Position numbers and translations under genes: made by a program. Under the pieces are notes generated by a model, which searched no databases, was not told where the DNA came from, and saw only the letters and a list, made by a program, of their open reading frames with translations. Below are positions 93 to 64,000 of a stretch of DNA of 64,000 bases, piece by piece. This DNA comes from Octopus vulgaris (taxonomy: Eukaryota): NCBI GenBank assembly GCA_951406725.2, contig OX597815.1, positions 93,558,001-93,622,000 on the forward strand. The letters are read 5' to 3'. Each line of letters opens with the position of its first letter. The stretch's first letter is position 1.

Positions 93-2520
<2,428 letters not shown>

Positions 2521-2676
2521 ACATAAGGGACTAAAGCCATCTGAATATGGCTAGGGACAGGGCAGGGTGGTGGGGGTGTTACTGTTGCATTTAGCCCCAG
2601 GCGAACATCGACGTCACCAGAAAGGCTCGACACCGTCACGGTGCCCTTAACCTGCAAAGGGAGGTAATTCCCCGAT

Positions 2677-2750
2677 GAAGCGGAAACCACACACGGACCA
2701 TGGTTTCAAGGTGTATTGCCTATCATCGGCGTGTGGTAGGCCTCCGCTTC
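2677..2750 (-). ncRNA. Type I hammerhead ribozyme, monomer 1
   Basis: Reverse complement reads cacacg-CCGATGA-tagg caataca cctt-GAAAC-catg-GTC-cgtgtg, with extended stem I gaagcgga/tccgcttc. Confidence 0.8.
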
Positions 2751-3036
2751 CTCGACGAATTCTCACTCTGCAGGATTTTCTTATATAGATTTTCAAGCAA
2801 AATACATTTGCTGATTTCGAAAATCTGTTCGAAAGCAATAATAATTCTCTAAAAGGGATATAGACAGTAACTGCTCGATAACATAAGGGACTAAAGCCAT
2901 CTGAATATGGCTAGGGACAGGGCAGGGTGGTGGGGGTGTTACTGTTGCATTTAGCCCCAGGCGAACATCGACGTCACCAGAAAGGCTCGACACCGTCACG
3001 GTGCCCTTAACCTGCAAAGGGAGGTAATTCCCCGAT

Positions 3037-3110
3037 GAAGCGGAAACCACACACGGACCATGGTTTCAAGGTGTATTGCCTATCATCGGCGTGTGGTAGG
3101 CCTCCGCTTC
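3037..3110 (-). ncRNA. Type I hammerhead ribozyme, monomer 2
   Basis: Identical to 2677-2750, offset by 360. Confidence 0.8.
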
Positions 3111-3396
3111 CTCGACGAATTCTCACTCTGCAGGATTTTCTTATATAGATTTTCAAGCAAAATACATTTGCTGATTTCGAAAATCTGTTCGAAAGCAATA
3201 ATAATTCTCTAAAAGGGATATAGACAGTAACTGCTCGATAACATAAGGGACTAAAGCCATCTGAATATGGCTAGGGACAGGGCAGGGTGGTGGGGGTGTT
3301 ACTGTTGCATTTAGCCCCAGGCGAACATCGACGTCACCAGAAAGGCTCGACACCGTCACGGTGCCCTTAACCTGCAAAGGGAGGTAATTCCCCGAT

Positions 3397-3470
3397 GAAG
3401 CGGAAACCACACACGGACCATGGTTTCAAGGTGTATTGCCTATCATCGGCGTGTGGTAGGCCTCCGCTTC
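3397..3470 (-). ncRNA. Type I hammerhead ribozyme, monomer 3
   Basis: Identical to 2677-2750, offset by 720. Confidence 0.8.
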
Positions 3471-3756
3471 CTCGACGAATTCTCACTCTGCAGGATTTTC
3501 TTATATAGATTTTCAAGCAAAATACATTTGCTGATTTCGAAAATCTGTTCGAAAGCAATAATAATTCTCTAAAAGGGATATAGACAGTAACTGCTCGATA
3601 ACATAAGGGACTAAAGCCATCTGAATATGGCTAGGGACAGGGCAGGGTGGTGGGGGTGTTACTGTTGCATTTAGCCCCAGGCGAACATCGACGTCACCAG
3701 AAAGGCTCGACACCGTCACGGTGCCCTTAACCTGCAAAGGGAGGTAATTCCCCGAT

Positions 3757-3830
3757 GAAGCGGAAACCACACACGGACCATGGTTTCAAGGTGTATTGCC
3801 TATCATCGGCGTGTGGTAGGCCTCCGCTTC
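3757..3830 (-). ncRNA. Type I hammerhead ribozyme, monomer 4
   Basis: Identical to 2677-2750, offset by 1080. Confidence 0.8.
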
Positions 3831-3942
3831 CTCGACGAATTCTCACTCTGCAGGATTTTCTTATATAGATTTTCAAGCAAAATACATTTGCTGATTTCGA
3901 AAATCTATATAAGAAAATCCTGCAGAGTGAGAATTCGTCGAG

Positions 3943-4016
3943 GAAGCGGAGGCCTACCACACGCCGATGATAGGCAATACACCTTGAAACCATGGTCCGT
4001 GTGTGGTTTCCGCTTC
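3943..4016 (+). ncRNA. Type I hammerhead ribozyme in the inverted arm
   Basis: Stem I cacacg(3958-3963)/cgtgtg(3998-4003); core CCGATGA 3964-3970; stem II agg/cct with loop CAATACA; GAAA 3986-3989; palindromic stem III ACCATGGT; predicted cleavage after GTC at 3997. Confidence 0.8.
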
Positions 4017-4218
4017 ATCGGGGAATTACCTCCCTTTGCAGGTTAAGGGCACCGTGACGGTGTCGAGCCTTTCTGGTGACGTCGATGTTCGCCTGGGGCT
4101 AAATGCAACAGTAACACCCCCACCACCCTGCCCTGTCCCTAGCCATATTCAGATGGCTTTAGTCCCTTATGTTATCGAGCAGTTACTGTCTATATCTCTT
4201 TTAGAGAATTATTATTGC

Positions 4219-4231
4219 TATATATATATAC

Positions 4232-4263
<32 letters not shown>

Positions 4264-4289
4264 ATACATATACATATATATACATATAC

Positions 4290-4320
<31 letters not shown>

Positions 4321-4321
4321 C

Positions 4322-4394
<73 letters not shown>

Positions 4395-4409
4395 CATATA
4401 TATATATAC

Positions 4410-4478
<69 letters not shown>

Positions 4479-4531
4479 CATACATACATACACACACATA
4501 CATACATACATACATATATATATATATATAT
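4219..4531. repeat. (TA)n/(TACA)n microsatellite
   Basis: Read directly from the sequence. Confidence 0.95.
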
Positions 4532-5149: not shown

Positions 5150-6340
5150 CAAGGTCAAAAGCCTTCATGAGGCCAACAATGTAGAGTGATTGTCTTTGCA
5201 CTGTGCATTTTTCTTGTAATTGTCATAGGGAGAAGATCCTCATTCCAAACACTGGCACTAACTAGAGCCTATAATTACAAGATGCTATCATCCAGAATAC
5301 TACATGGATCACTTATTGGTTTGCTGCAAGATCTGACTGCAGCCAAAAAAGATGCATAATATGAAGCCAACCAGCAAGCAGCATATTGATGTTACTATAA
5401 CATCATCATCATCATCGTTTAACGTCCGTTCTCCATGCTAGCATGGGTTGGACGGTTCGACCGGGGATCTGGGAAGCCAGAAGGCTGCACCAGGCTCCAG
5501 TCTTATCTGGCAATGTTTCTACAGCTGGATGCCCTTCCTAACGCCAACCACTCCGTGAGTGTAGTGGGTGCTTAGTTCATCAGATTACAGATGAGGTGGG
5601 ATTCTCTCAGGGTTTCTATCCACAATGTTCATCTGAAAACTTTTGGTAAGAAATGTTGCAAAACACAGGATTGGTTTGAAGTTATTCTGGGCAAACTCAC
5701 AACTTTCAATGAAGCAAAATGTGCTGCACTACTTGAACATAAATTCCACACCCATCCAGGCAACCATACAAATATTAAGATTAGAAAGTTGCAAGCCCAG
5801 AGAACAATCAGACACTGAGCAACTGACTATTGGCTACAGCTTTGCAAAGGTATCAATCAACATTTGATACAGAGGATATCCATGGAATATATGAAAGCAT
5901 AAAGAAGGCCAATGGCCCAACCATGAGCAAGATAACATCACCATAAACCATAACAGGTGAGACCATCAAAGATAAAGGCAAGCAAATGGAAAGATGGTAA
6001 TATTCCACAAAATTAAACCATTTCAGTGTGCAAGATACCATGGAATGTCAGTCAGTGATGGAGGAACTGGGTACTCTGTCAATTGTTGAAAAAAAGAGCA
6101 AAACTATTGATTATCTCCCCCCTACTGGTAAGGCACCAGGATTGGATGGCACCCTGTTATGTCACTCACACAAACTCCTGATTCAGTGCTGGAAAGAATG
6201 AGCATTTCCACAGACCATGAGGCAGCAACACTTAACCCATACAATAACAAATGAGATAGAAGCGACAACAACAATTTCCCTGCTGAGCATCATTAGGAGG
6301 GTCAGGGTCTTCATTTGTGGGGTCCTAAACAAACTCCAGG
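5150..6340 (+). mobile_element. Decayed RTE-like LINE fragment (endonuclease-RT linker and start of RT)
   Basis: Fragmentary frames such as RWDSLRVSIHN..KTFGKKCCKTQDWFE and GETIKDKGKQMERW resemble RTE/BovB ORF2; multiple stops. Confidence 0.55.
5401..5572 (-). mobile_element. 3' end of RTE-type repeat with (GAT)n tail
   Basis: Matches 62528-62710, which is contiguous with RTE coding remnants. Confidence 0.8.
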
Positions 6341-6435: not shown

Positions 6436-6777
6436 TATCATCATCATCGTTTAACGTCTGCTTTCCATGCTAGCATGGGTTGGACGGTTCAACTGGAGTC
6501 TGGGAAGCCCGAAGGCTGCACCAGGCCAGTCAGATCTGGTGGTGTTTCTACAGCTGGATGCCCTTCCTAACGCCAACCACTCCGTGAGTGTAGTGGGTGC
6601 TTTTTATGTGCCACCGACACAGGTGCCAGACGAGGCTGGCGAACGGCCACGCTTGGATGGTGTTTTTTACGTGCCACCGGCACGGAGGCCAGGCGAGGCT
6701 GATATATATATATATACTTTTAGGTACATGCATACACATGCACACACGTGTATGTATATAAATATCTATACAGTGTA

Positions 6778-6823
<46 letters not shown>

Positions 6824-7002
6824 CACATACACAGTATGCTGGTGGCACGTAAAAGCACCCATTACACTCTCGGAATGGTTGACATTAGGAAGGGCATCCA
6901 GCTGTAGAAACCACGCCAAGACAAAACGAGTCTGGTGCAGCCTTCCAGCTTGCCAGCCCTGGTCAAACCATCCAACCGATGCCAGCATGGACAATGGACA
7001 TA
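6436..7002. mobile_element. Two RTE-type 3' tail copies in opposite orientation (6436-6700 minus; 6836-7002 plus)
   Basis: Shared motif tttctacagctggatgcccttcctaacgccaaccactccg and its reverse complement. Confidence 0.75.
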
Positions 7003-10206: not shown

Positions 10207-10960
10207 TCAAGTATTTGGGCTAAGTTTGATGGTATTTTTGTTTCCTTTTTACAGGAACAGCTTGATGTATTGGTTAACAGTCAATAGCATTGGAGAGCAT
10301 GAAGATTAAAGTTGTAGTTGAGAAAAAGTTACCTGACATAGAGGACTAGAAGCCATTTGAATATTGGAAGGGCCTGTGGGAAGGGACACAGCAGGTGTTC
10401 TGACTGCATCCACATGCCAGAATTCATCCCCACATCTTTTGCACAGGCCTTTAAGCTCAATTCAGATGGTATGTGAAGCTGCAGGAGACTATGGTCAATA
10501 CCTGGCTGGAGAGGGTTGCTGCTGGAAAGCCATTTGAGTAGCAACAAGATTCAGAACCTTGCCATACCTCCGGAAAGAGACAGAAGTGGTTGTCAGAGAA
10601 TTTCTATGACTTCACCAAGCCCCAATTTCTGGCCTAATTCCTCCAATTATATTCCCATGGATTACTATAGGTGGGGTGCAGTTGACAATGATACCAACTG
10701 TTGCTGCAACACCAAAGTCGAGCTAGTGGCCAGGATCAAGGAGTTGTTCAAAGATCTAGGGGCACAGTGAGGAATATATGTGTCAAGTTCTGGTGCCATC
10801 TTGAGGCTGTGGTGGAGGCTGAGGGTAGCTACTTTGAGTGAACTGTTATCTCCCAGCCATAATCTCAGAAATTTCTTTATTGATATTTTAAAAACATTGA
10901 TTTTTGGATGGAGTATTGTTTTTTTTTTCTTTTTATACAAACTGTCAAATGTAGGCTGAA
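10207..10960 (+). mobile_element. Tc1/mariner (maT-like) internally deleted relic
   Basis: PNFWPNSSNYIPMDYYRWGAVDNDTNCCCNTKVELVARIK resembles the WPxxSPDLNPxDY C-terminus; related to 59634-60510. Confidence 0.65.
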
Positions 10961-21059: not shown

Positions 21060-21763
21060 TCATGTACTGTATGCCTGCAGCACATTGATGACACTGCAAG
21101 AAAAATTTTGCCAATTAAGCACAAGGTTCCCAGCTGCCTTGCTACTCTTGTCCAACCAGCTTTTGATATTGTCCATCCATTGCATTCTTTGTCTGCCTCT
21201 TGATCTACTGCCCTCTACACTTCCTTCTATGATAATGTTTTTCAAACCACTGCTTCTTCAGATATGGCCATAATGAATGAGCTTTTGTTTCTTCACATTA
21301 TTCAGGAATTGTCGTCTTTCACCTTCTTGTAACACCCTTCATTTATCTGATAATCCTTGTAAGAGACTTGTAACCTTCTCCTATACACCCATATTTCAAA
21401 TGCATTGATTATACTTTCTTTAAATTTTTTCATGTATGAGTGTTCATTTGGCCAACAGGCATTATAAATGCCTGTTGGTCAAATGAACACTCATACAAGC
21501 CTTGTTTTATACTTAGGACATTTTTGCTGGTCCAATTGTTAACAAATACACATGGTCTTTATCTCAACCATAAGCAAACTAAGGTCATGGTAGTAGGAAA
21601 AGAGAAAGTAAAAGTTGACATTAAACTGAGCAGTGAGAGGATTCAGGTTGAATTGTACAAGTATCTTGGAACCCAAGTCTCTGATAATGCCATATGTAAG
21701 AAAGAAATTAGGACACAGCTAGCTATGTCAAGAACATCCATAGAAAAGCTTACTAACATCTAG
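21060..21763. mobile_element. RTE LINE fragment with internal inversion (C-terminus on minus 21060-21430; thumb region on plus 21500-21763)
   Basis: IIIEGSVEGSRSRGRQRMQWMDNIK (minus) and GLYLNHKQTKVMVV..YKYLGTQVSDNAICKKEIRTQLAM (plus). Confidence 0.75.
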
Positions 21764-24786: not shown

Positions 24787-25322
24787 ATCATCATCATCAT
24801 CGTTTAACGTCCGTTTTCCATGCTGTCATGGGTTGGACAACTTGACTGAGGTCTGGAGATCCAGCAGCTGCACCAAGCTCCAATCTGATCTGGCAATACT
24901 TCTACAACTGGATGCCCTTTCTAATGCCAACCACTCCGAGAGTGCAGTGGGTGCTTTTTACATGCCACTGGCATAGGAGCCAGTCAGGCAGGCCTGGCAT
25001 CGATCACGTTCAGATAGTGCTTTTTACATGGCACTAGCAGGAGAGCCAATCCGGGGGATTGGCATCGGCCACATCCAGTTGGTGCCTTTTACGTGCCATG
25101 AGAGTCAGTCAGAGGGTACTAGCATCATCCACGTTTGGATGGTGCTTTTTATATGCCACTGGCACAAGAGCCAATCAGGCAGACCTGGCATTGACTATGT
25201 TCAGATGGTGCTTTTTATGTGCCACTGGCATGGATACATATATAAATATATATACATATATATATTTATATTGGAAAATGCACCACATTCAGATGGTGCT
25301 TTTTATGTGCCACTGGCATGGA
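24787..25322 (-). mobile_element. RTE LINE 3' UTR with internal ~55-bp tandem repeats
   Basis: (CAT)n tail plus repeated ggtgctttttatgtgccactggca units as in 62700-63050. Confidence 0.75.
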
Positions 25323-36179: not shown

Positions 36180-38050
36180 CTGAGAAAGTTAGAGGTTGCG
36201 AATTCAACCAACTAAGGGATAATATCTATCCAATATACTGCTGGAAGAATACACAATTATTAATACACAAGTGTTTTTTCATTGCATTGCAATTACATAA
36301 CCGAGTGTACTAAATGGGTGAGGGTAAAGGGTTATTTTACCATTAATTTATAGAGCAATAAGAAAATGGAGGGGATCAATAGGTGGTATTCATCAACTTT
36401 TAGACATTATATTATGTCAATTTATTTATTTATTTACTAAAATGACAATTACAACAATATACATACATGTATAACATATTATGCTTTACATATATAATAC
36501 ATAAAGATACCAGTAATTATAAAATATATAACATACAGGAATAGAAATTGGGAAAATATCTTACAGATGTTTCATCCAAGAGGCAAAAATACCTCATTCT
36601 ACCTTTATCTCTCCAGTAGACTGAAGTAATTAGTAGACGAAATTGAGGTATTTGGGTGTTTCTTAAGGCTTTGTCAGAAATTTTAGAAAGTTAACCTTAT
36701 GTACAGAAGTATGTGCCCCCATATACTTCTGCATGCTCAGTTGTCCATTGGATCCTGTTGCTGTTACTTCTGTTTCTGTATTGCAGTGGCCACTTAGTGG
36801 ATAAATTGTGTTACCCTTGCATGAGCATCATACCTAAGCCTTGGGTCTGGGCCTACCTACTAAATTTTTTTTACACTAGGTGCACAGCTAAAGGATAATT
36901 GTTGAATCTATTGGTACAGGGGAAGTCTCTATCAACTAAATTAAGGAAGATCTTACCTACTCTGGTTTTAACGTTTAAAGAGAATGGCAGTGTGAACCAC
37001 AGTACTTTCTGGTAGTGCTTTCTCTTGGGGATGGGGGCTAAGTTCTGGCATGTAACTAATATTATCCTTGAAACTTCTGGCTGCCAGAGCCCGGTTGTAG
37101 TATGGGGCAGCAGCATCAAAGATCTCTTTGCTTGAAGACAAACTAGAGATTCTACTGCTGACGCCCTTAATCAGGTTCCTGAACATTATGGCTGGATGGC
37201 AGGAACTTGTGTTAATGTAAAACAACTTCTCATTTGGTTTCTTAAAGGGCCTATAGGCATCTGATTCAAGGCCCAGGGTCACGTTGAGGAAACCTATTGT
37301 TTTCAGGTTGCTCTCTATAGTCCGAGAGAGTTTGTGGTGCTTGTGAGGTCCTTTCTGAACTTACCTAGCATGTGGCCATTGGCCCCTCTTGATATTGCTA
37401 GTGTGTTGTCCCTGTAGAGACCAAAGCTAGTTGAAGGGAATTTATTTTTTAGTATACCAAGGATGAAGAAACCAACTAGGTCACATACATCCACACTGTC
37501 AAAAGCACCCATTTCCATGTGTGTTTGATCCAAGCAGACTCCTTACTGAAGAGTAGGGTTCTTCTGGCATGCATGATAATGTATATATCCTCATCATTGA
37601 CTTTAGTATGGGCCCTAGCAAAGTTCAGTGCCTTTAACAGGAGCTCCTTTGATATAGATGGGTAGAAGTCCACTATATCAAATTGGGTAAATCTAGCTCT
37701 ACCCCTACCCTGCCACTGTTGGCTTTAAACTATGTAATGACTTCATTAGTGTTGTGCCATAGGGTTAAGTCAGAGGCATTTCTAAAACCGTTACCCATCT
37801 TCCTGATAAGCTGTTTGCTCACCTGTCCTATCTCAGACTTCAGATTGCATTTAGGGATAGAGGCAAAGTTAGGCTTATGATCCTTGATCGTTAGGAAGGC
37901 CTCTTTCTTCACCAGTGTCTATCTGCTATGCTTAGTTTAAAAGCTATATCTCTGATGAGCATAAAGTTATATAATCGGATTGTTACCTAACACTCCATTG
38001 TATTCTTTATGCAAAACCGATTGGTAAGATCAGCCATGATGGGTATCTAA
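36180..38050 (-). mobile_element. Penelope-like element relic (RT, thumb, pLTR)
   Basis: DFYPSISKELLLKALNFA, MGAFDSVDVCDLVGFFIL..GLYRDN, RPFKKPNEKLFYINTSSCHP, KVLWFTLPFSLNVKTRVGKIFL; frameshifted and flanked by (TA)n. Confidence 0.85.
36558..36681 (-). ncRNA. Degenerate hammerhead in PLE pLTR
   Basis: Reverse complement: attt-CTGACAA-long stem II (aaatacctca/tgaggtattt)-GAAAC atct GTA-agat; G8 mutated to A. Confidence 0.45.
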
Positions 38051-38064
38051 TATTATACATTTCA

Positions 38065-38100
<36 letters not shown>

Positions 38101-51010: not shown

Positions 51011-52279
51011 TTGGGTTGTCAAGAAAATCTAGCGGAATTTTTAATTTGGGTCTTAAATGATGTATTTTCAAATTCATTTTTGTTAAATTACTTTGAATTT
51101 ATATATCATTTTAGAGCCTGTTTTTTGTTCTATCTAATCATGTTACTCTATTTCTTTTTGAATAATTAGGCCATTTCTTCCAGAATGGACAAAAAGCAAA
51201 TTCACACAATTTTCTTATTCCAGTTCAAGCTAGGCCAAAAAGCTGCTGAAACAGCTCGCTATATCAATGATGCATTTGGCCCAGGAACCACTAATGAACG
51301 TACAGCACAATGGCAGTTCAAGAAATTTTGTAGTGCTGATGAAAGTCTTGAAGATGATAAGCATAGTGGTTGGCCAGTGGATGTTGACAATGTTCAACTA
51401 AGAACCTTAGTCGAAGCCAATCCATGCACAACTGTTTGAGAGCTTGCTTTTGAATTAGACGTAACGTATATGACAATTTCTAACTACTTGAAAGAGATTG
51501 GAAAAACAAAAATAATTGAGAAATGGGTACCGCATGAATTGAACGACAACCAAAAAAACGCCATTTTGAAGTGTCGTCTTCCCTTCTTTTACACAACAAG
51601 AATGACCCATTTCTCGACCGGATTGTGACTTGTGATAACAAGTGGATTCTGTATGACAACTGGCAATGCTCAGCTCAGTGGTTGGACAAAGACAAAGCTC
51701 CACAGCACTTCCCGAAGCCAAAGTTGCACCAAATGAAGGTCATGGTGACTGTTTGGTTGTCTGTGGCCGGTCTCATCCATTTCAGCTTTTTGGATCAAGG
51801 TGAAACCATTACGCCGAAGAAGTACTATCAGCAAATGGATGAAATGCATAAGAAGCTCCGACAACAACAGCCAGCATTGGTCAATAGAAATGGACCAATT
51901 CTTCACCACAACAAAGTTAGGCCACATGTCACACAACTGACACTGCAGAAGTTGAACGAATTGGGCTACAAAACTCTGCCTCATCTGCCATATGCACCAG
52001 ACCTCTTGCCTACTGACTACCACTTTTTCAAGCATCTCGACAACTTCCTGCATGAGAAATGCTTCAAAAACCAAGACGATGCCAAACAAGTCTTCAATGA
52101 CTTCATCACCACCAGAACACAGGATTTTTACGCTAATGGCATAAATGAACTTGTTTCACATTGGCAAAAGTGTGTTGATTCTGGAGTTTATTTCGATTAA
52201 TAAAGCTTTGTTTGAGCCGATACATGTGCATCTGAATTTAAAAAGGTTAAAAACTTCAAGAATTTTCTTGACAACCTAA
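51011..52279 (+). mobile_element. Full-length mariner element with TIRs and TA target duplication
   Basis: TA|ttgggttgtcaagaaaat ... attttcttgacaacctaa|TA; about 1.27 kb. Confidence 0.95.
51185..52200 (+). pseudogene. Mariner transposase pseudogene
   Basis: [38 protein letters not shown] motifs; stop at 51437-51439 and a frameshift near 51555. Confidence 0.92.
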
Positions 52280-52754: not shown

Positions 52755-52981
52755 ATGTGTGTTGTGTGTGTGACCATGTGTGTGACCATGTGTGTACCGT
52801 TGGCGATTTTCTTTCTCCGTCTTCCCTTCCTTGGACCTTTCCTTTTTCTATGTTTCTGACGAAGAGCTCCACTCGAAACGTTAATCCTCCTTCTTTCTTT
52901 CCTTTCCTGAGTGTCCAATAACACTATACTTGTTCCACGTCCTCGCGTTGTGTTTTCTTTTTGTTCATGTTTGGATTAACT
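52755..52981 (+). mobile_element. Short (TA)n-embedded element with minimal hammerhead-like motif
   Basis: 52852-52886: gttt-CTGACGA-A-GAG ctcca CTC-GAAACGTT-aatc. Confidence 0.6.
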
Positions 52982-54036: not shown

Positions 54037-54753
54037 ATGATAGATCTATCGGACTTTCAAAGAGGTCAAATTGTTGGTGCTCATATGGCAGGTGTTAGTG
54101 TAATGAAAACAGTTGAAATGTTTGGTGTATCAAAAAGTACTGTCTTGAAAGTAATGACAACCTTTGAGAAAGAGGGAAAAACCTCCTTGTTGAAACAAAA
54201 CTTTGGAAGAAAACCAAAACTTTCAGATAGGGACCGTTGGACTCTTACATGAATTGTTAGAAAGGATCAGAAAAGTACAGCTCCCAAAATTACTGCAGAG
54301 CTTAATGACCACCTCAAGAATCCACAGAAGCTGGATTTCAATGGGTGGGCTGCAATCAGAAAGCCACTATTTTCAAAAACAAACATTGCAAACCGTTTAG
54401 AATGGAGTAAAAACCTACAGAATTGGTCCCTAGAGCAGTGGAAGAATGTTATTTTCTTGGACGAATTGTCCTTTACCTTATTTCCGACCACCAGCCAAGT
54501 ATATGTGTGGAGGCAGCCAAAAGAAGCATTTGATCCAGATTGCCTTCTTCCAACTGTAAATATGAAGGAGGATCTGTGATAATCTGTAGGGCTATATCTT
54601 GGAAATCTGCTGCCCAATGGTTTCCCTTTATGGCAGAATTAATAGTCAAGACTAAGCATTTTATCTTATCAAATTCATCCTATGGTTGCCGAACTGTTTC
54701 CAGAGGGAAACACAATCTTTCAGGATGATAATGCACCAATCCACACAGCTAAA
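54037..54753 (+). pseudogene. Tc1-like transposase relic
   Basis: DLSDFQRGQIVGAHMAG..GRKPKLSDRDR, WKNVIFLDELSF, GGSVII, IFQDDNAPIHTAK; stops and frameshifts, truncated. Confidence 0.88.
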
Positions 54754-57659: not shown

Positions 57660-58930
57660 TTATGCTTGTGACCAAATTTCTAATTACACCTGGGGAGATG
57701 GTTGGAGTTCCTGTGGACTGGAGAAGGAAGTCCCATCCCCAACCTTGAACGTGAAGATACTCAGAAAAAGAAAGATAATCTGGTCCAATTCTCCATTTAA
57801 TCTAGAAGTTTTAACTAACATAGCTAAGAGCTTCATGATACTAATTAAGATTCGTTTCCCTATAACCCACAAATATTATAAACTTTACAATCCCCAAAGT
57901 CTTAAGGTCAGTTATTGCTGCTTAGCCAACATTGCTTCAAACACTGCATGCTACAATTGATGCAAGTATATACCTACACAACCTCCAATCCATACCCCAA
58001 CCTGTAACAGCCAAAATCCTGCCAACTGCCCACCAAGAGGATCTTGCCTTTCAAAGGCTGTAGTCTATAGAGCTACCCTCACACCATCCAATGGTATCAC
58101 AAGATACTATACAGGCATGACAACCAATGACTTTGAGGGAAGTTATGCACAGCATATAAGCTCTTTCAGATGCAGAGATAGAGAAAAATCCACCTCCCTA
58201 TCCTGCTTCATCTGGAGACTTTATGACCATCAGAACAACTTGCCCAAAATTGAATAGAGTAGCATTGACAGAGACCCTACCCCTTACTCACCTGAAAGTC
58301 ACAATTGTCAACTCTGTCTCCACAAAATACTACATTAGCCTGCAGTATCCTTCAGTAGGAAGAATGAACTATCTTATTGCTGCCACCAGAGATACACCTT
58401 AAGGAACTTAAAGCTGCTGGCAGCTGACATTCCAAATATATCACCCTAGGCTTGGTTGCCCTACACACAAGCATAAAAACTGCTGCTGCTAATGTGTTTA
58501 ACCAAGCAGCCACCAAGTGATTAAACCATAACAACACCCCCATCCTACTGTGTATGATATCAAATGCAATGAACTGATGTCACTGAATATGCTATATTGT
58601 AGCTTGCAGACATAGTGATGACAGCTCCCTGCCAACATCCTGGCTGAGCTCATAGGCCTAAGAATAAAGACAAGAACTGATGCTGCTTCCTCAACAACCA
58701 TCATTGATGAGAAGCTTTCTTCTACTATTACATATGTTTAACCTATCTCTCTCTCTGATGACAGCATACTCAGCCTATGAAATCTACACATGACATGATG
58801 TTCCAATAGCTGAGATATTCTAGAAACAGCTGTCAGAGACTAAACCTTTTATTATATAGTTAAATTAAATGTTCTTGTAAATCCTTGCCAAACTGTTTGC
58901 TTTTCTTTTCTGCTTTAATTTATACCTACC
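57660..58930 (+). mobile_element. Penelope-like element 3' relic: GIY-YIG endonuclease and pLTR
   Basis: RKIIWSNSPFNL..LKVSYCC, NCPPRGSCLSKAVVYRATL..YYTGMTTNDF..HISSFR..STSLSCFIW, CQLCL; hammerhead downstream. Confidence 0.85.
58750..58839 (+). ncRNA. Type I hammerhead ribozyme in PLE pLTR
   Basis: tctct-CTGATGA-stem II (ctcagc.tat/atagctgag)-GAAAC agct GTC-agaga; canonical core, 5-bp stem I, palindromic stem III. Confidence 0.75.
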
Positions 58931-59633: not shown

Positions 59634-60510
59634 TACAGAGTGTAGTGAATAAATAGTTGTCTACATTACACAAAAATTAAATAACACTGACATCTCATTT
59701 TAACAGATATATTTACAAAAATTACTTTAAAATATTTGAAATACTAAAGAGTAAATTTATTCTATAAAATCACCATTGACTTCAACCATGGCCTCCAGAT
59801 GACTTCGGAATATTCTGCAACTCTCCTGGATGGTCTCCTTGTTTAAGTTGGTGAATGCTGTCATAATCCTTGCCTTCAGTTCATCTTTGATGTTACAAGG
59901 AGTTCTGTACCCACACATAAAAAGCAAGGAAGTTGCAGTTTGGGTAATTAGGTGATGTGGTTGCAGAAATTGTCTGATAGCCACGACTGGGTTCTCCTGC
60001 ATGTGTGGCATGGTGCAGAGTCCTGTTACCAGACATAGGGTCTTCCAGCAGCCACCCTCTTGACCCAGGGCAGCATTATCTTCTCCATGCACTTGATGTA
60101 GGGCTTCATGTTGAGTCTGAGGCCATGTGGAAAGATGAATTCAGGAATAATGCTGCCATCACTAGTGATCACTCCTAACATCATGATGTTAACTGGATGT
60201 TTGATTTTTATTCCTTTCAGTACATGTTTTGGGGACATGACAAGCCAACAGTTGTTCTGTGTGTTCACCTTCTGATCTTGGCAGAAATTTTTCTCATCTG
60301 AGAAAACCCAAAGCATGTCTGGTTGGAGGGGATGCTTGAGTTTGTTCAAATGCTTCATAGTGTAGTCTTTCCTCTTGTCCTTGGTGGCTTGGGATACAAA
60401 TTAGCCCGTTCTCATCTTGTATGAGGAATACTGAATGCCTGCATGCACTACCTGCCTGATAAGAAACTCAGACACTCCCATGTCCCTGGTGATGTGCCTG
60501 ACTGACTTTC
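59634..60510 (-). mobile_element. Tc1/mariner (maT/DD37D-like) transposase relic
   Basis: WVFSDEKNFCQDQKVNTQN, GVITSDG, RPYVW*QDSAPCH, DELKARI..FRSHLEAMVEVNGDFIE. Confidence 0.85.
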
Positions 60511-62527: not shown

Positions 62528-64000
62528 ATCATCATCATCATTATCATCATCATCGTTTAACATCTGCTTTCCATGCTAGCATGGGTTGGACGATTTGACT
62601 GAGGGCTGGCAAACCAGATGGTTGCACCAGTCTTCAATCTTGATCTGGCAGAGTTTCTACAGCTGGATGTCTTTCCTAATGCCAACCACTCCGAGAGCGT
62701 AGTGGATGCTTTTACGTGCCACCGGCATGGGGCCAGTCAGGCGGTACTGGCAACGACCTCACTCAAATCTTTTACACATGCCACCGGCACAGGTGCCAGT
62801 AAGGTGATGCTGGTAACGATCACGCTCGAATGATGTCTTTTATGTGCCACGGGCACGGAGGCCAGTTAGCCGCTCTGGCAATGATCTTGCTCGGATGGTA
62901 CTCTTAACACCCTACTAGCACAGGGTTCGAGTGCCAGTAAGGCAACTCTGGTAACGATCACAGTCGAATGGTGCCTTTATGTGCCACTGGCATGGGAGCC
63001 AGTTAGCCGCTCTGTCAACGATCACACTCATATGGTGCTCTTTGCACCCCGCTAGCACGGATGCCAGTCATTAAATTTGATTTTGATTTTGATTTCACTT
63101 GCCTCAACATGTCTTCACAAACAGAGTTTTAGTGTCCAAAGAAGGAAAAGGTATGCATAAGTGGGCTGGTTATGCTCCTGGCATAGGCCACGAGATTATG
63201 GTCTCATTTGGCTTGCTGGGTCTTCTCACGCACAGCATATTTCCAAAAGTCTTGGTCACTAGTCATTTCCTTGGTGAGGCCTAAAGTTTGAAGGTCGTGC
63301 TTCACCACTTCATCCCAGGTCTTCCTAGGTCTACCTCTTCCACAAGGTTCCCTCAGCTGCTAGGGTGTGTCACTTTTTCACACAGCTATCCTCATCCATT
63401 CTCACCACATGACCATGTTCCTCTTGCACACCACATCTGATGCTTCTTAGGTCCAAGGTACTTACACTCTGTCGTGTATGCACACTGACATTACACATCC
63501 ATTGGATCATACTGGCTTCATTCCTTGCGAGCTTACGCATGTCTTCAGCAGTCACAGCCCATGTTTCACTGCCATGTAGCTGGCTGTTTGTACACATGCA
63601 TCATACAGTCTACATTTTACTCTGAGCGAGAGGCCTTTTGTCACCAGCAGAGGTAAGAGCTCTTTGAACTTTGCCCAAGCTATTCTTATTCTAGCAGCTA
63701 CACTTTCAGTGCACCCTCCCCCGCTACTGACTTGGTCACCTAGGTAACAGAAGCTATCAACTACTTCTAGTTTTCCTTCCTGGAATGTGGCGGAAGTTGG
63801 TCTCTGTGTATTTTCAGAGTTTATTGCTCCCGAGCATCTGCCACATACAAAAACTATCTTCCCAGTTAGTCTTCCTTTGGTATTACTGCACCTCTTATGT
63901 GTCCATAGCTTACACTGGGTACATCTTATAGAGTTTCTACCTATGCCTCAACTACAGATCGAGCAGGGCCATCTACCTGAAGGGATTTGTGGTTTCTCAC
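62528..64000 (-). mobile_element. RTE LINE 3' portion (PHD-like finger, RT thumb, C-terminus, repeat-rich 3' UTR, (GAT)n tail)
   Basis: EVVDSFCYLGDQVSSGGGC, LHGSETWAVTAEDMRKL, GHVVRMDEDSCVKK; runs off the window end. Confidence 0.92.

Follow-up and report, generated by a model that had tools for sequence, protein, structure and literature searches.

An apparent hammerhead retrozyme insertion in Octopus vulgaris with Penelope-like junction geometry

The DNA analysed here, called the window throughout, is a stretch of 64,000 nucleotides from Octopus vulgaris (assembly GCA_951406725.2, contig OX597815.1, positions 93,558,001 to 93,622,000). Near its left end lies an insert that is flanked on both sides by (TA)n (table 1). 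The first part of this insert is a direct tandem array of 1389 bp, which comprises 3.86 units of 360 bp with zero mismatches between units; TRF gave a concordant result. The second part is an inverted arm. It pairs with 3554–3874 of the array to give an inverted repeat with 321 bp on each side and a single mismatch, G at 3576 versus the base at 4197. In the direct units the equivalent base is G throughout (2856, 3216 and 3576). An earlier note on this DNA had described these arms, the mismatch and the 24-nt spacer, and on re-analysis its coordinates proved exact. The mismatch cannot discriminate between mechanisms, as one change in about 1700 bp lands in the arm about 18% of the time (313/1702, hand calculation). 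Within the 64 kb we found no further long, close inverted repeat of this kind except a head-to-head pair of SINE-like elements (6464–6615 and 6841–6991), 80% identical and arranged around short (TA)n tracts.

Table 1. Positions of the features of the insert, its flanks and the two PLE relics in the window.
Feature	Position	Strand	Remarks
Left (TA)n target tract	135..2517		interruptions mostly C on the plus strand (75 C, 10 G)
Candidate target-site duplication, 28–29 bp	2490..2518	+	tentative; equals 4220–4248
Direct tandem array, 3.86 identical 360-bp monomers	2518..3906	-	RNA-sense (ribozyme) strand: minus
Type I hammerhead fold, copy 1	2690..2735	-	further copies 3050–3095, 3410–3455, 3770–3815
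Seven monomer bases lying between direct-run end and arm start on the template	3547..3553	+	position in the preceding unit; missing at the junction
8-bp inverted repeat, 5' arm	3867..3874	+	inner end of second cDNA or snap-back landing site
24-nt spacer	3875..3898	+	contains inner agcaaa/tttgct stem
8-bp inverted repeat, 3' arm	3899..3906	+	direct run ends here; common to both orientations
Inverted arm, 321 bp	3899..4219	+	less than one monomer; single mismatch at 4197
Type I hammerhead fold in inverted arm	3958..4003	+	cut triplet GUC, site at 3997
44-bp one-sided extension ('tail') relative to left end	4176..4219	+	partner 3554–3597; includes the mismatch
Right (TA)n tract	4220..4531		plus-strand C interruptions as on the left (28 C, 0 G)
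Broken Hydra-clade PLE RT relic	36910..37906	-	context, outside the insertion; RT and thumb, no endonuclease match
Broken PLE C-terminal/GIY-YIG relic, Hydra-type motifs	57736..58401	+	context; C-terminal region with endonuclease

What might such an insert encode? All stop-free frames of at least 100 codons that touch it run through (TA)n, and it appears to be without protein-coding content. An ORF for reverse transcriptase (RT) and GIY-YIG is absent from it, so the insert is not an autonomous Penelope-like element (PLE). The layout is purely tandem, with no apparent arrangement of LTR, PBS and PPT as judged from the repeat structure.

Instead the unit carries a putative ribozyme. Each unit can be folded as a type I hammerhead with a helix I of 6 bp, a U4C core, a helix II in which a U.U pair is followed by 3 bp and a 7-nt loop, a palindromic helix III and a GUC site. 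In the direct array the hammerhead is encoded by the minus strand, in the arm by the plus strand. Reportedly, U4C reduces in vitro activity but still permits viroid infectivity (PMC3088659). Rfam gave no match at gathering score anywhere in the window, its hammerhead models included; on 3500–4230 its 14 matches by E-value were all to microRNA models below gathering score and reflect the long hairpin. As a circle, the monomer has a predicted folding energy of −116 kcal/mol, against −90 ± 5 kcal/mol for 60 shuffled sequences (z −5.7), and the predicted minimum-energy fold differs from the active ribozyme fold. A second hammerhead on the opposite strand was considered and rejected, the core-like words there having neither a closing helix I nor a valid cut triplet. 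Retrozymes are recognized by repeats of about 150–450 bp in at least two consecutive units, and this array has 3.86 units of 360 bp. Judged by sequence, the locus looks like a young non-LTR retrozyme insertion with a putative hammerhead.

No second clear copy of the monomer was found within the 64-kb window. The best-scoring region among 197 segments compared contains a weak relative of part of the monomer at 10336–10470 (37 nt at 81%, E 0.006; 10336–10410 for the marginal match itself); it lies in an imperfect inverted repeat, no hammerhead is visible nearby by eye, and it may be an old relative or a chance match. A minimal hammerhead-like motif occurs at 52856–52883, with no link to any PLE match. 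In a scan of GTDB genomes the strict hammerhead pattern had no hits. The loose pattern had five versus about three expected by chance, and in these five helix I never exceeded 2 bp and neither a tandem repeat nor additional similarity was present. No octopus retrozyme family was met in the literature searched.

Is the junction between array and arm real? A fold-back chimeric read that bridged oppositely oriented copies of different loci, or polishing that homogenized the array, could account for identical units, a very long (TA)n tract and a single variant base in the arm, and assemblies are known to have trouble with complex PLE structures (PMC8557442). The flanks argue otherwise. The mirror ends at 4219, whereas a plain fold-back would have gone on copying upstream sequence. 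Nor is the right flank a mirror of the left, since its interruptions are C, not G, on the plus strand. Moreover, the last 28–29 bases of the left flank are the same as the first 28–29 of the right flank, one C included, and under three nulls a match of this length arose in just 11, 32 and 12 of 600 random placements. C-containing flank matches of any length are frequent (327–396 of 600 random placements). As the flanks are of low complexity, the proposed target-site duplication is tentative. The 44-bp tail and the 7-nt gap described below would, on an artefactual origin, demand a biological cause of their own or a coincidence. We consider an artefact unlikely.

The insert lies in the microsatellite, AT-rich kind of target associated with mobilization by PLEs; since (TA)n is abundant in the window, this carries modest weight. 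The left tract is unusually long, about 2.4 kb (135–2520), and its length in the assembly may be unreliable. Within it, 2341–2372 is a 32-bp end fragment of an abundant SINE-like repeat, with relatives at 5405–5436, 24790–24821 and elsewhere.

How does the sequence turn back upon itself? The direct run stops at the final base of GAAAATCT (3906), beyond which the DNA repeats, in reverse complement, the sequence upstream of AGATTTTC (3867–3874). These two octamers form an 8-bp inverted repeat which, together with its inner agcaaa/tttgct stem, is present in 4/4 units, bearing out the earlier observation that the switch sits at a repeat belonging to every monomer. Of the 129,600 ways in which two cDNA end positions can be combined on the monomer, only 8 offer complementarity of at least 8 nt, so the position of the switch is not a matter of chance; the pair observed is the one with the shortest loop of the eight.

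Short inverted repeats seed fold-back in replication or repair. The junction might then have arisen after insertion, by a replication template switch within an existing array and unrelated to the mobilizing enzyme, and the predicted stability of the hairpin at the junction is in keeping with that. But the arm runs straight into (TA)n with no return to direct monomer, so that a second event removing the right end would be required. We regard this origin as very improbable.

Alternatively the switch belongs to the insertion itself. A single cDNA, made by a PLE enzyme, would end at 3906, fold on the 8-bp repeat, prime 313 nt of synthesis upon itself and join the right flank, perhaps once the endonuclease had cut at the tail site. 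This is the mechanism that the earlier note proposed. Physically it is possible: the DNA hairpin is predicted at about −8 kcal/mol with its end paired at a probability of about 0.8, ranking 15th of 360 possible ends. Use of the repeat with the shortest loop favours intramolecular fold-back of this kind and goes against priming from two separate ends. There are precedents as well. Self-priming has been proposed for palindromic PLE junctions (PMC3846280), R2 proteins yield snap-back 5' junctions (PMC11371274) and the tail of PLE insertions was formerly ascribed to endonuclease-mediated resolution (PMC8557442). What the mechanism does not account for is where the arm ends.

To locate the ends, we mapped all four onto the 360-nt monomer, taking 2518 as phase 0. 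The direct run extends from phase 0 to 308; the arm spans phase 316 (outer end) to 276 (inner end). Cleavage by the ribozyme would fall at phase ~178. Both outer ends are downstream of that site, by 178 and 222 nt, and for that reason are not ribozyme-made termini. The earlier note had the 3' ends of the ribozyme strand merge outward into (TA)n; that contact is confirmed, with the qualification that these ends are not products of the ribozyme.

Two distances emerge from this map. First, the arm exceeds the phase of the left end by 44 bp, on one side only. By chance an end comes to lie no more than 45 nt from the first start at 319/1349 positions, and the tail alone is weak evidence. Second, the outer end of the arm lies 7 nt along the template beyond the stop of the direct run, so that the insert, un-inverted, reads as one colinear template of 1717 nt. 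A uniformly random stop would fall within 7 nt at 45/1349 positions and within 10 nt at 63/1349. These geometry tests were picked after inspecting this one locus. Microhomology at the outer junctions amounts to 3 nt (left) and 1 nt (right). The insert has neither poly(A) nor a simple-repeat tail, and its left junction shows the 3-nt homology only.

Self-priming of a single cDNA gives no reason for a stop 7 nt from colinear continuation, and it leaves unexplained why the arm should end 44 nt from the first start site. In vitro, moreover, the tail of a PLE maps to sites where RT starts, not where it stops (PMC11167929). We judge self-priming rather unlikely, though a serious candidate. The same sequence at the junction would arise if two cDNAs had been primed from the two ends of the target; the two mechanisms differ only in what sets the outer end of the arm.

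Priming from both ends would proceed as follows. A PLE endonuclease would nick both strands of the (TA)n tract. The top-strand end would prime at an internal site on the RNA (2518), giving a first cDNA, the plus strand, that begins at 2518 and extends over 3.86 rounds of the 360-nt unit. From the bottom-strand end, priming would occur 44 nt further 3' on the RNA, at a second internal site (4219, equivalent in phase to 3554), with 321 nt copied. The first RT would halt 7 nt before the second start site, whereupon the 3' ends of the two cDNAs would anneal through the 8-bp inverted repeat and be filled in. The geometry in this scheme is observed; nicking of both strands and two internal starts that define the tail are taken from published in vitro work on a lizard PLE, and we infer the enzyme, the order of events and formation of the junction in vivo. 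Since it predicts both the 7-nt gap and the 44-nt offset, we favour priming from both ends somewhat over self-priming. A real junction, a PLE RT/GIY-YIG enzyme acting in trans (most likely of the Hydra clade) and priming from both target ends together form our preferred account, which we hold tentatively, with a confidence somewhat short of even.

Twin priming is best known from L1. There the internal breakpoints are often close together, with deletions (22/32) or duplications (10/32) of 1–10 bp (PMC11702581), the cDNAs anneal at short complementarity (PMC2912911) and variants have been described (PMC2837659). The octopus insert shows a gap of 7 nt, within the limit of about 10 nt, and an 8-bp overlap at the inversion. 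Its 1–3 nt of microhomology at the outer junctions is scant for L1-style twin priming and counts against it.

Might the enzyme then have been of the LINE type, the (TA)n setting and 44-bp offset of a real insertion being coincidental? The 7-nt gap and the microhomology at the inversion junction match the signature of L1 inversions (PMC11702581, PMC2912911), LINEs have been named among the possible partners of retrozymes (PMC7229834) and the window has many SINE-like repeats that end in simple-repeat tails. Yet the insert carries neither poly(A) nor a simple repeat as a 3' tail, both its ends are internal and its outer-junction homology is 1–3 nt. Elements moved in trans by L1 have few 5' inversions (PMC2912911). 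For the target-site duplication, discrete and of about 12–18 bp in a twin-primed LINE insertion, the locus offers the tentative candidate of 28–29 bp in low-complexity DNA, which does not decide the matter. A LINE-type enzyme is, we think, quite unlikely.

Within the preferred account, that of PLE priming from both ends, a bolder version can be framed: that the locus preserves the moment at which a PLE dimer was copying a circular retrozyme RNA from the two strands of the target. One RT would roll through 3.86 laps while the second, starting at the tail site 7 nt ahead, would stop short of one lap (321/360 nt) on meeting the stalled first complex. The stem-loop of 3867–3906 is predicted in the RNA as well (pairs at P 0.73–0.86), just 3' of the second start, and from this modelled fold it may be a putative binding site of the PLE protein. 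This version is speculative and, in our judgement, unlikely to be correct as a whole. If true, it would mean that the inverted repeats and tails of PLEs come from twin priming and not from self-priming, and it would supply direct genomic evidence for retrozyme circles as the template of retrotransposition.

How well does a PLE fit as the mobilizing partner? PLE insertions are reported to be partial tandems to which a 5'-truncated copy is joined in inverted orientation, with a tail of 30–40 bp at one end (PMC8557442). In a rotifer Penelope the inverted pLTR has a 15-bp overlap with the direct one and is the shorter by 37 bp, and the tail measures 31 bp (PMC3846280). In vitro, the protein of a lizard PLE cuts AT-rich DNA on both strands and extends each of them; the element's tail is the interval between two internal start sites of RT on the RNA, and unprocessed RNA is used, ribozyme cleavage being dispensable (PMC11167929). 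Hammerheads occur in the pLTRs of PLEs (PMC4209133). The octopus insert has a partial tandem with an adjacent inverted copy, internal ends lying off the ribozyme cut, and no poly(A). The claim of PLE-like insertion geometry, made before on the arms and the (TA)n setting, is strengthened by the one-sided, tail-like extension of 44 bp and by internal ends away from the ribozyme cut. By this sequence evidence the locus appears to behave like a PLE insertion, a fit of geometry and without a sequence tie to a particular PLE family. A PLE partner for the retrozyme insertion is plausible.

The window itself contains PLE relics. These had been placed at 36180–38050 and 57660–58930; both are real, but protein-level matches cover only the shorter extents given in table 1. 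With Hydra-type proteins as queries, tblastn against the relics gave E-values down to 7e-50. By eye, one relic has 35/54 and 38/55 residues (about 65–70%) identical to Hydra-1_Obim. With its stops read as X, the endonuclease relic yielded three homologues out of 120 candidates. They have the cysteine linker, and the CxxC and CxH flanking the catalytic E and N, that are features of the Hydra clade; DKT is present in the one homologue covering that position. Pfam gave nothing for the four relic segments or the three homologues, so the clade assignment draws on motifs and on a by-eye comparison to a published consensus. The segment around the RT relic (36180–38068) is bounded by (TA)n on both sides, and its part 3' of the relic (36180–36900) matches no endonuclease and occurs just once within the window. 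Downstream of the endonuclease relic, at 58755–58800, there are hammerhead-core-like words with unconvincing helices I and III, possibly a decayed ribozyme.

Does the monomer share sequence with such elements? Eight nucleotide comparisons with the relics and their flanks gave a best p of 0.065, and the 3' regions of the two relics are not alike when compared with each other (p = 0.60). By eye, the monomer has no similarity to the ends of Hydra-1_Obim beyond helix III of the hammerhead. A pLTR or 3' end shared with an autonomous PLE was thus not found among the two relics and the Hydra-1_Obim ends. Being broken, the relics cannot be the active partner; because they also lack nucleotide similarity to the monomer, their co-occurrence with it is weak evidence. 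The earlier inference of a PLE partner gains from relics in the window that belong to the (TA)n-targeting, hammerhead-carrying Hydra clade, but not from their condition or from any nucleotide similarity to the monomer. In the families listed for the clade, 26/27 prefer (TA)n, and 14 of the 25 whose hammerhead is listed share with the monomer the U.U pair that forms the base of helix II. The latter is not specific to Hydra, since the axolotl retrozyme hammerhead has U.U in helix II too (PMC7229834). Naiads also target (TA)n but are without canonical hammerheads and, as described, have long been inactive in cephalopods.

Other mobile elements leave traces in the window. A relic of a Mariner-type transposase occupies 51538–52200 (Pfam Transposase_1, E 3e-25), with weaker Tc1-like pieces at 54253–54579 and 59757–60400. 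Fragments at 63552–63947 (minus) and 21440–21763 (plus) presumably resemble C-terminal regions of LINE RTs; on both, Pfam gave sub-threshold hits only.

Which enzyme mobilizes animal retrozymes, and whether their template is circular or of another form, are open questions in the field. PLEs were put forward as partners in 2020 (PMC7229834), and a preprint of 2026 links them to retrozymes in vertebrates by co-occurrence and pLTR phylogeny, its available text containing no junction analysis (bioRxiv 10.64898/2026.07.22.740005). Thus in the accessible parts of these two sources the support for PLEs is co-occurrence and pLTR similarity, not insertion junctions. Both of the inferences made earlier for this locus, a self-primed PLE junction and a PLE as the partner of the retrozyme, are already in print (PMC3846280, PMC7229834, bioRxiv 10.64898/2026.07.22.740005). 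How the tandem and inverted structures of PLEs form has been described as undefined. In the literature searched, from which subscription papers were largely absent, we met no retrozyme insertion with an inverted arm and tail and no explanation of PLE inversions by twin priming. With a unit this short and repeated, every insertion gives four end positions on a common 360-nt scale. Counts of these positions over many copies could separate self-priming from two-ended priming, and circular from linear templates. The feature is well formed and probably real, and it offers junction-level support, from one locus, for an existing hypothesis: a hypothesis with its test, not a proof.

Metazoan non-LTR retrozymes resemble this insert in having tandem, non-coding units of 150–450 bp, a type I hammerhead in each unit (putative in the octopus), a GC content below 50% and strong self-pairing, here predicted, of the circle (PMC7229834; bioRxiv 10.64898/2026.07.22.740005), and the units of mussel retrozymes, at 350–390 bp, are comparable to the 360 bp found here. 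The U4C core sets the octopus unit apart from them, as do the inverted arm, the tail and the (TA)n junctions, which the accessible text of the same two sources does not describe.

The PLEs of the Hydra clade share the (TA)n target and have relics in the same window; their hammerheads are canonical, and helix III of Hydra-1_Obim differs from that of the monomer by a one-base loop. However, there is decay in the relics and essentially no divergence in the retrozyme insert, and no 3' sequence can be aligned between them.

The R2-protein snap-back has the same layout, a cDNA end that primes on cDNA and then joins the target, but it belongs to an engineered system for which the text available states no fixed stop position (PMC11371274). 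L1 twin priming shares with the octopus insert an inverted 5' segment, a template gap of a few bases and microhomology at the inversion junction (PMC11702581, PMC2912911, PMC2837659). It differs in that the template here would be a tandem or circular RNA, so that direct and inverted parts repeat each other, in the lack of poly(A) here and in the enzyme inferred.

Unlike PLEs, the insert has no ORF, consists wholly of repeats of one short unit and showed no homology to a known pLTR in the comparisons made; its tail, at 44 bp, is slightly above their range of 30–40 bp. In its arrangement, on the other hand, it is like the endonuclease-bearing PLEs (PMC8557442, PMC3846280, PMC11167929), which combine a tandem with an inverted, 5'-truncated copy, an overlap or palindrome at the junction, a one-sided tail (a candidate one in the octopus), internal starts, an AT-rich or (TA)n target and a hammerhead upstream of the 3' end.
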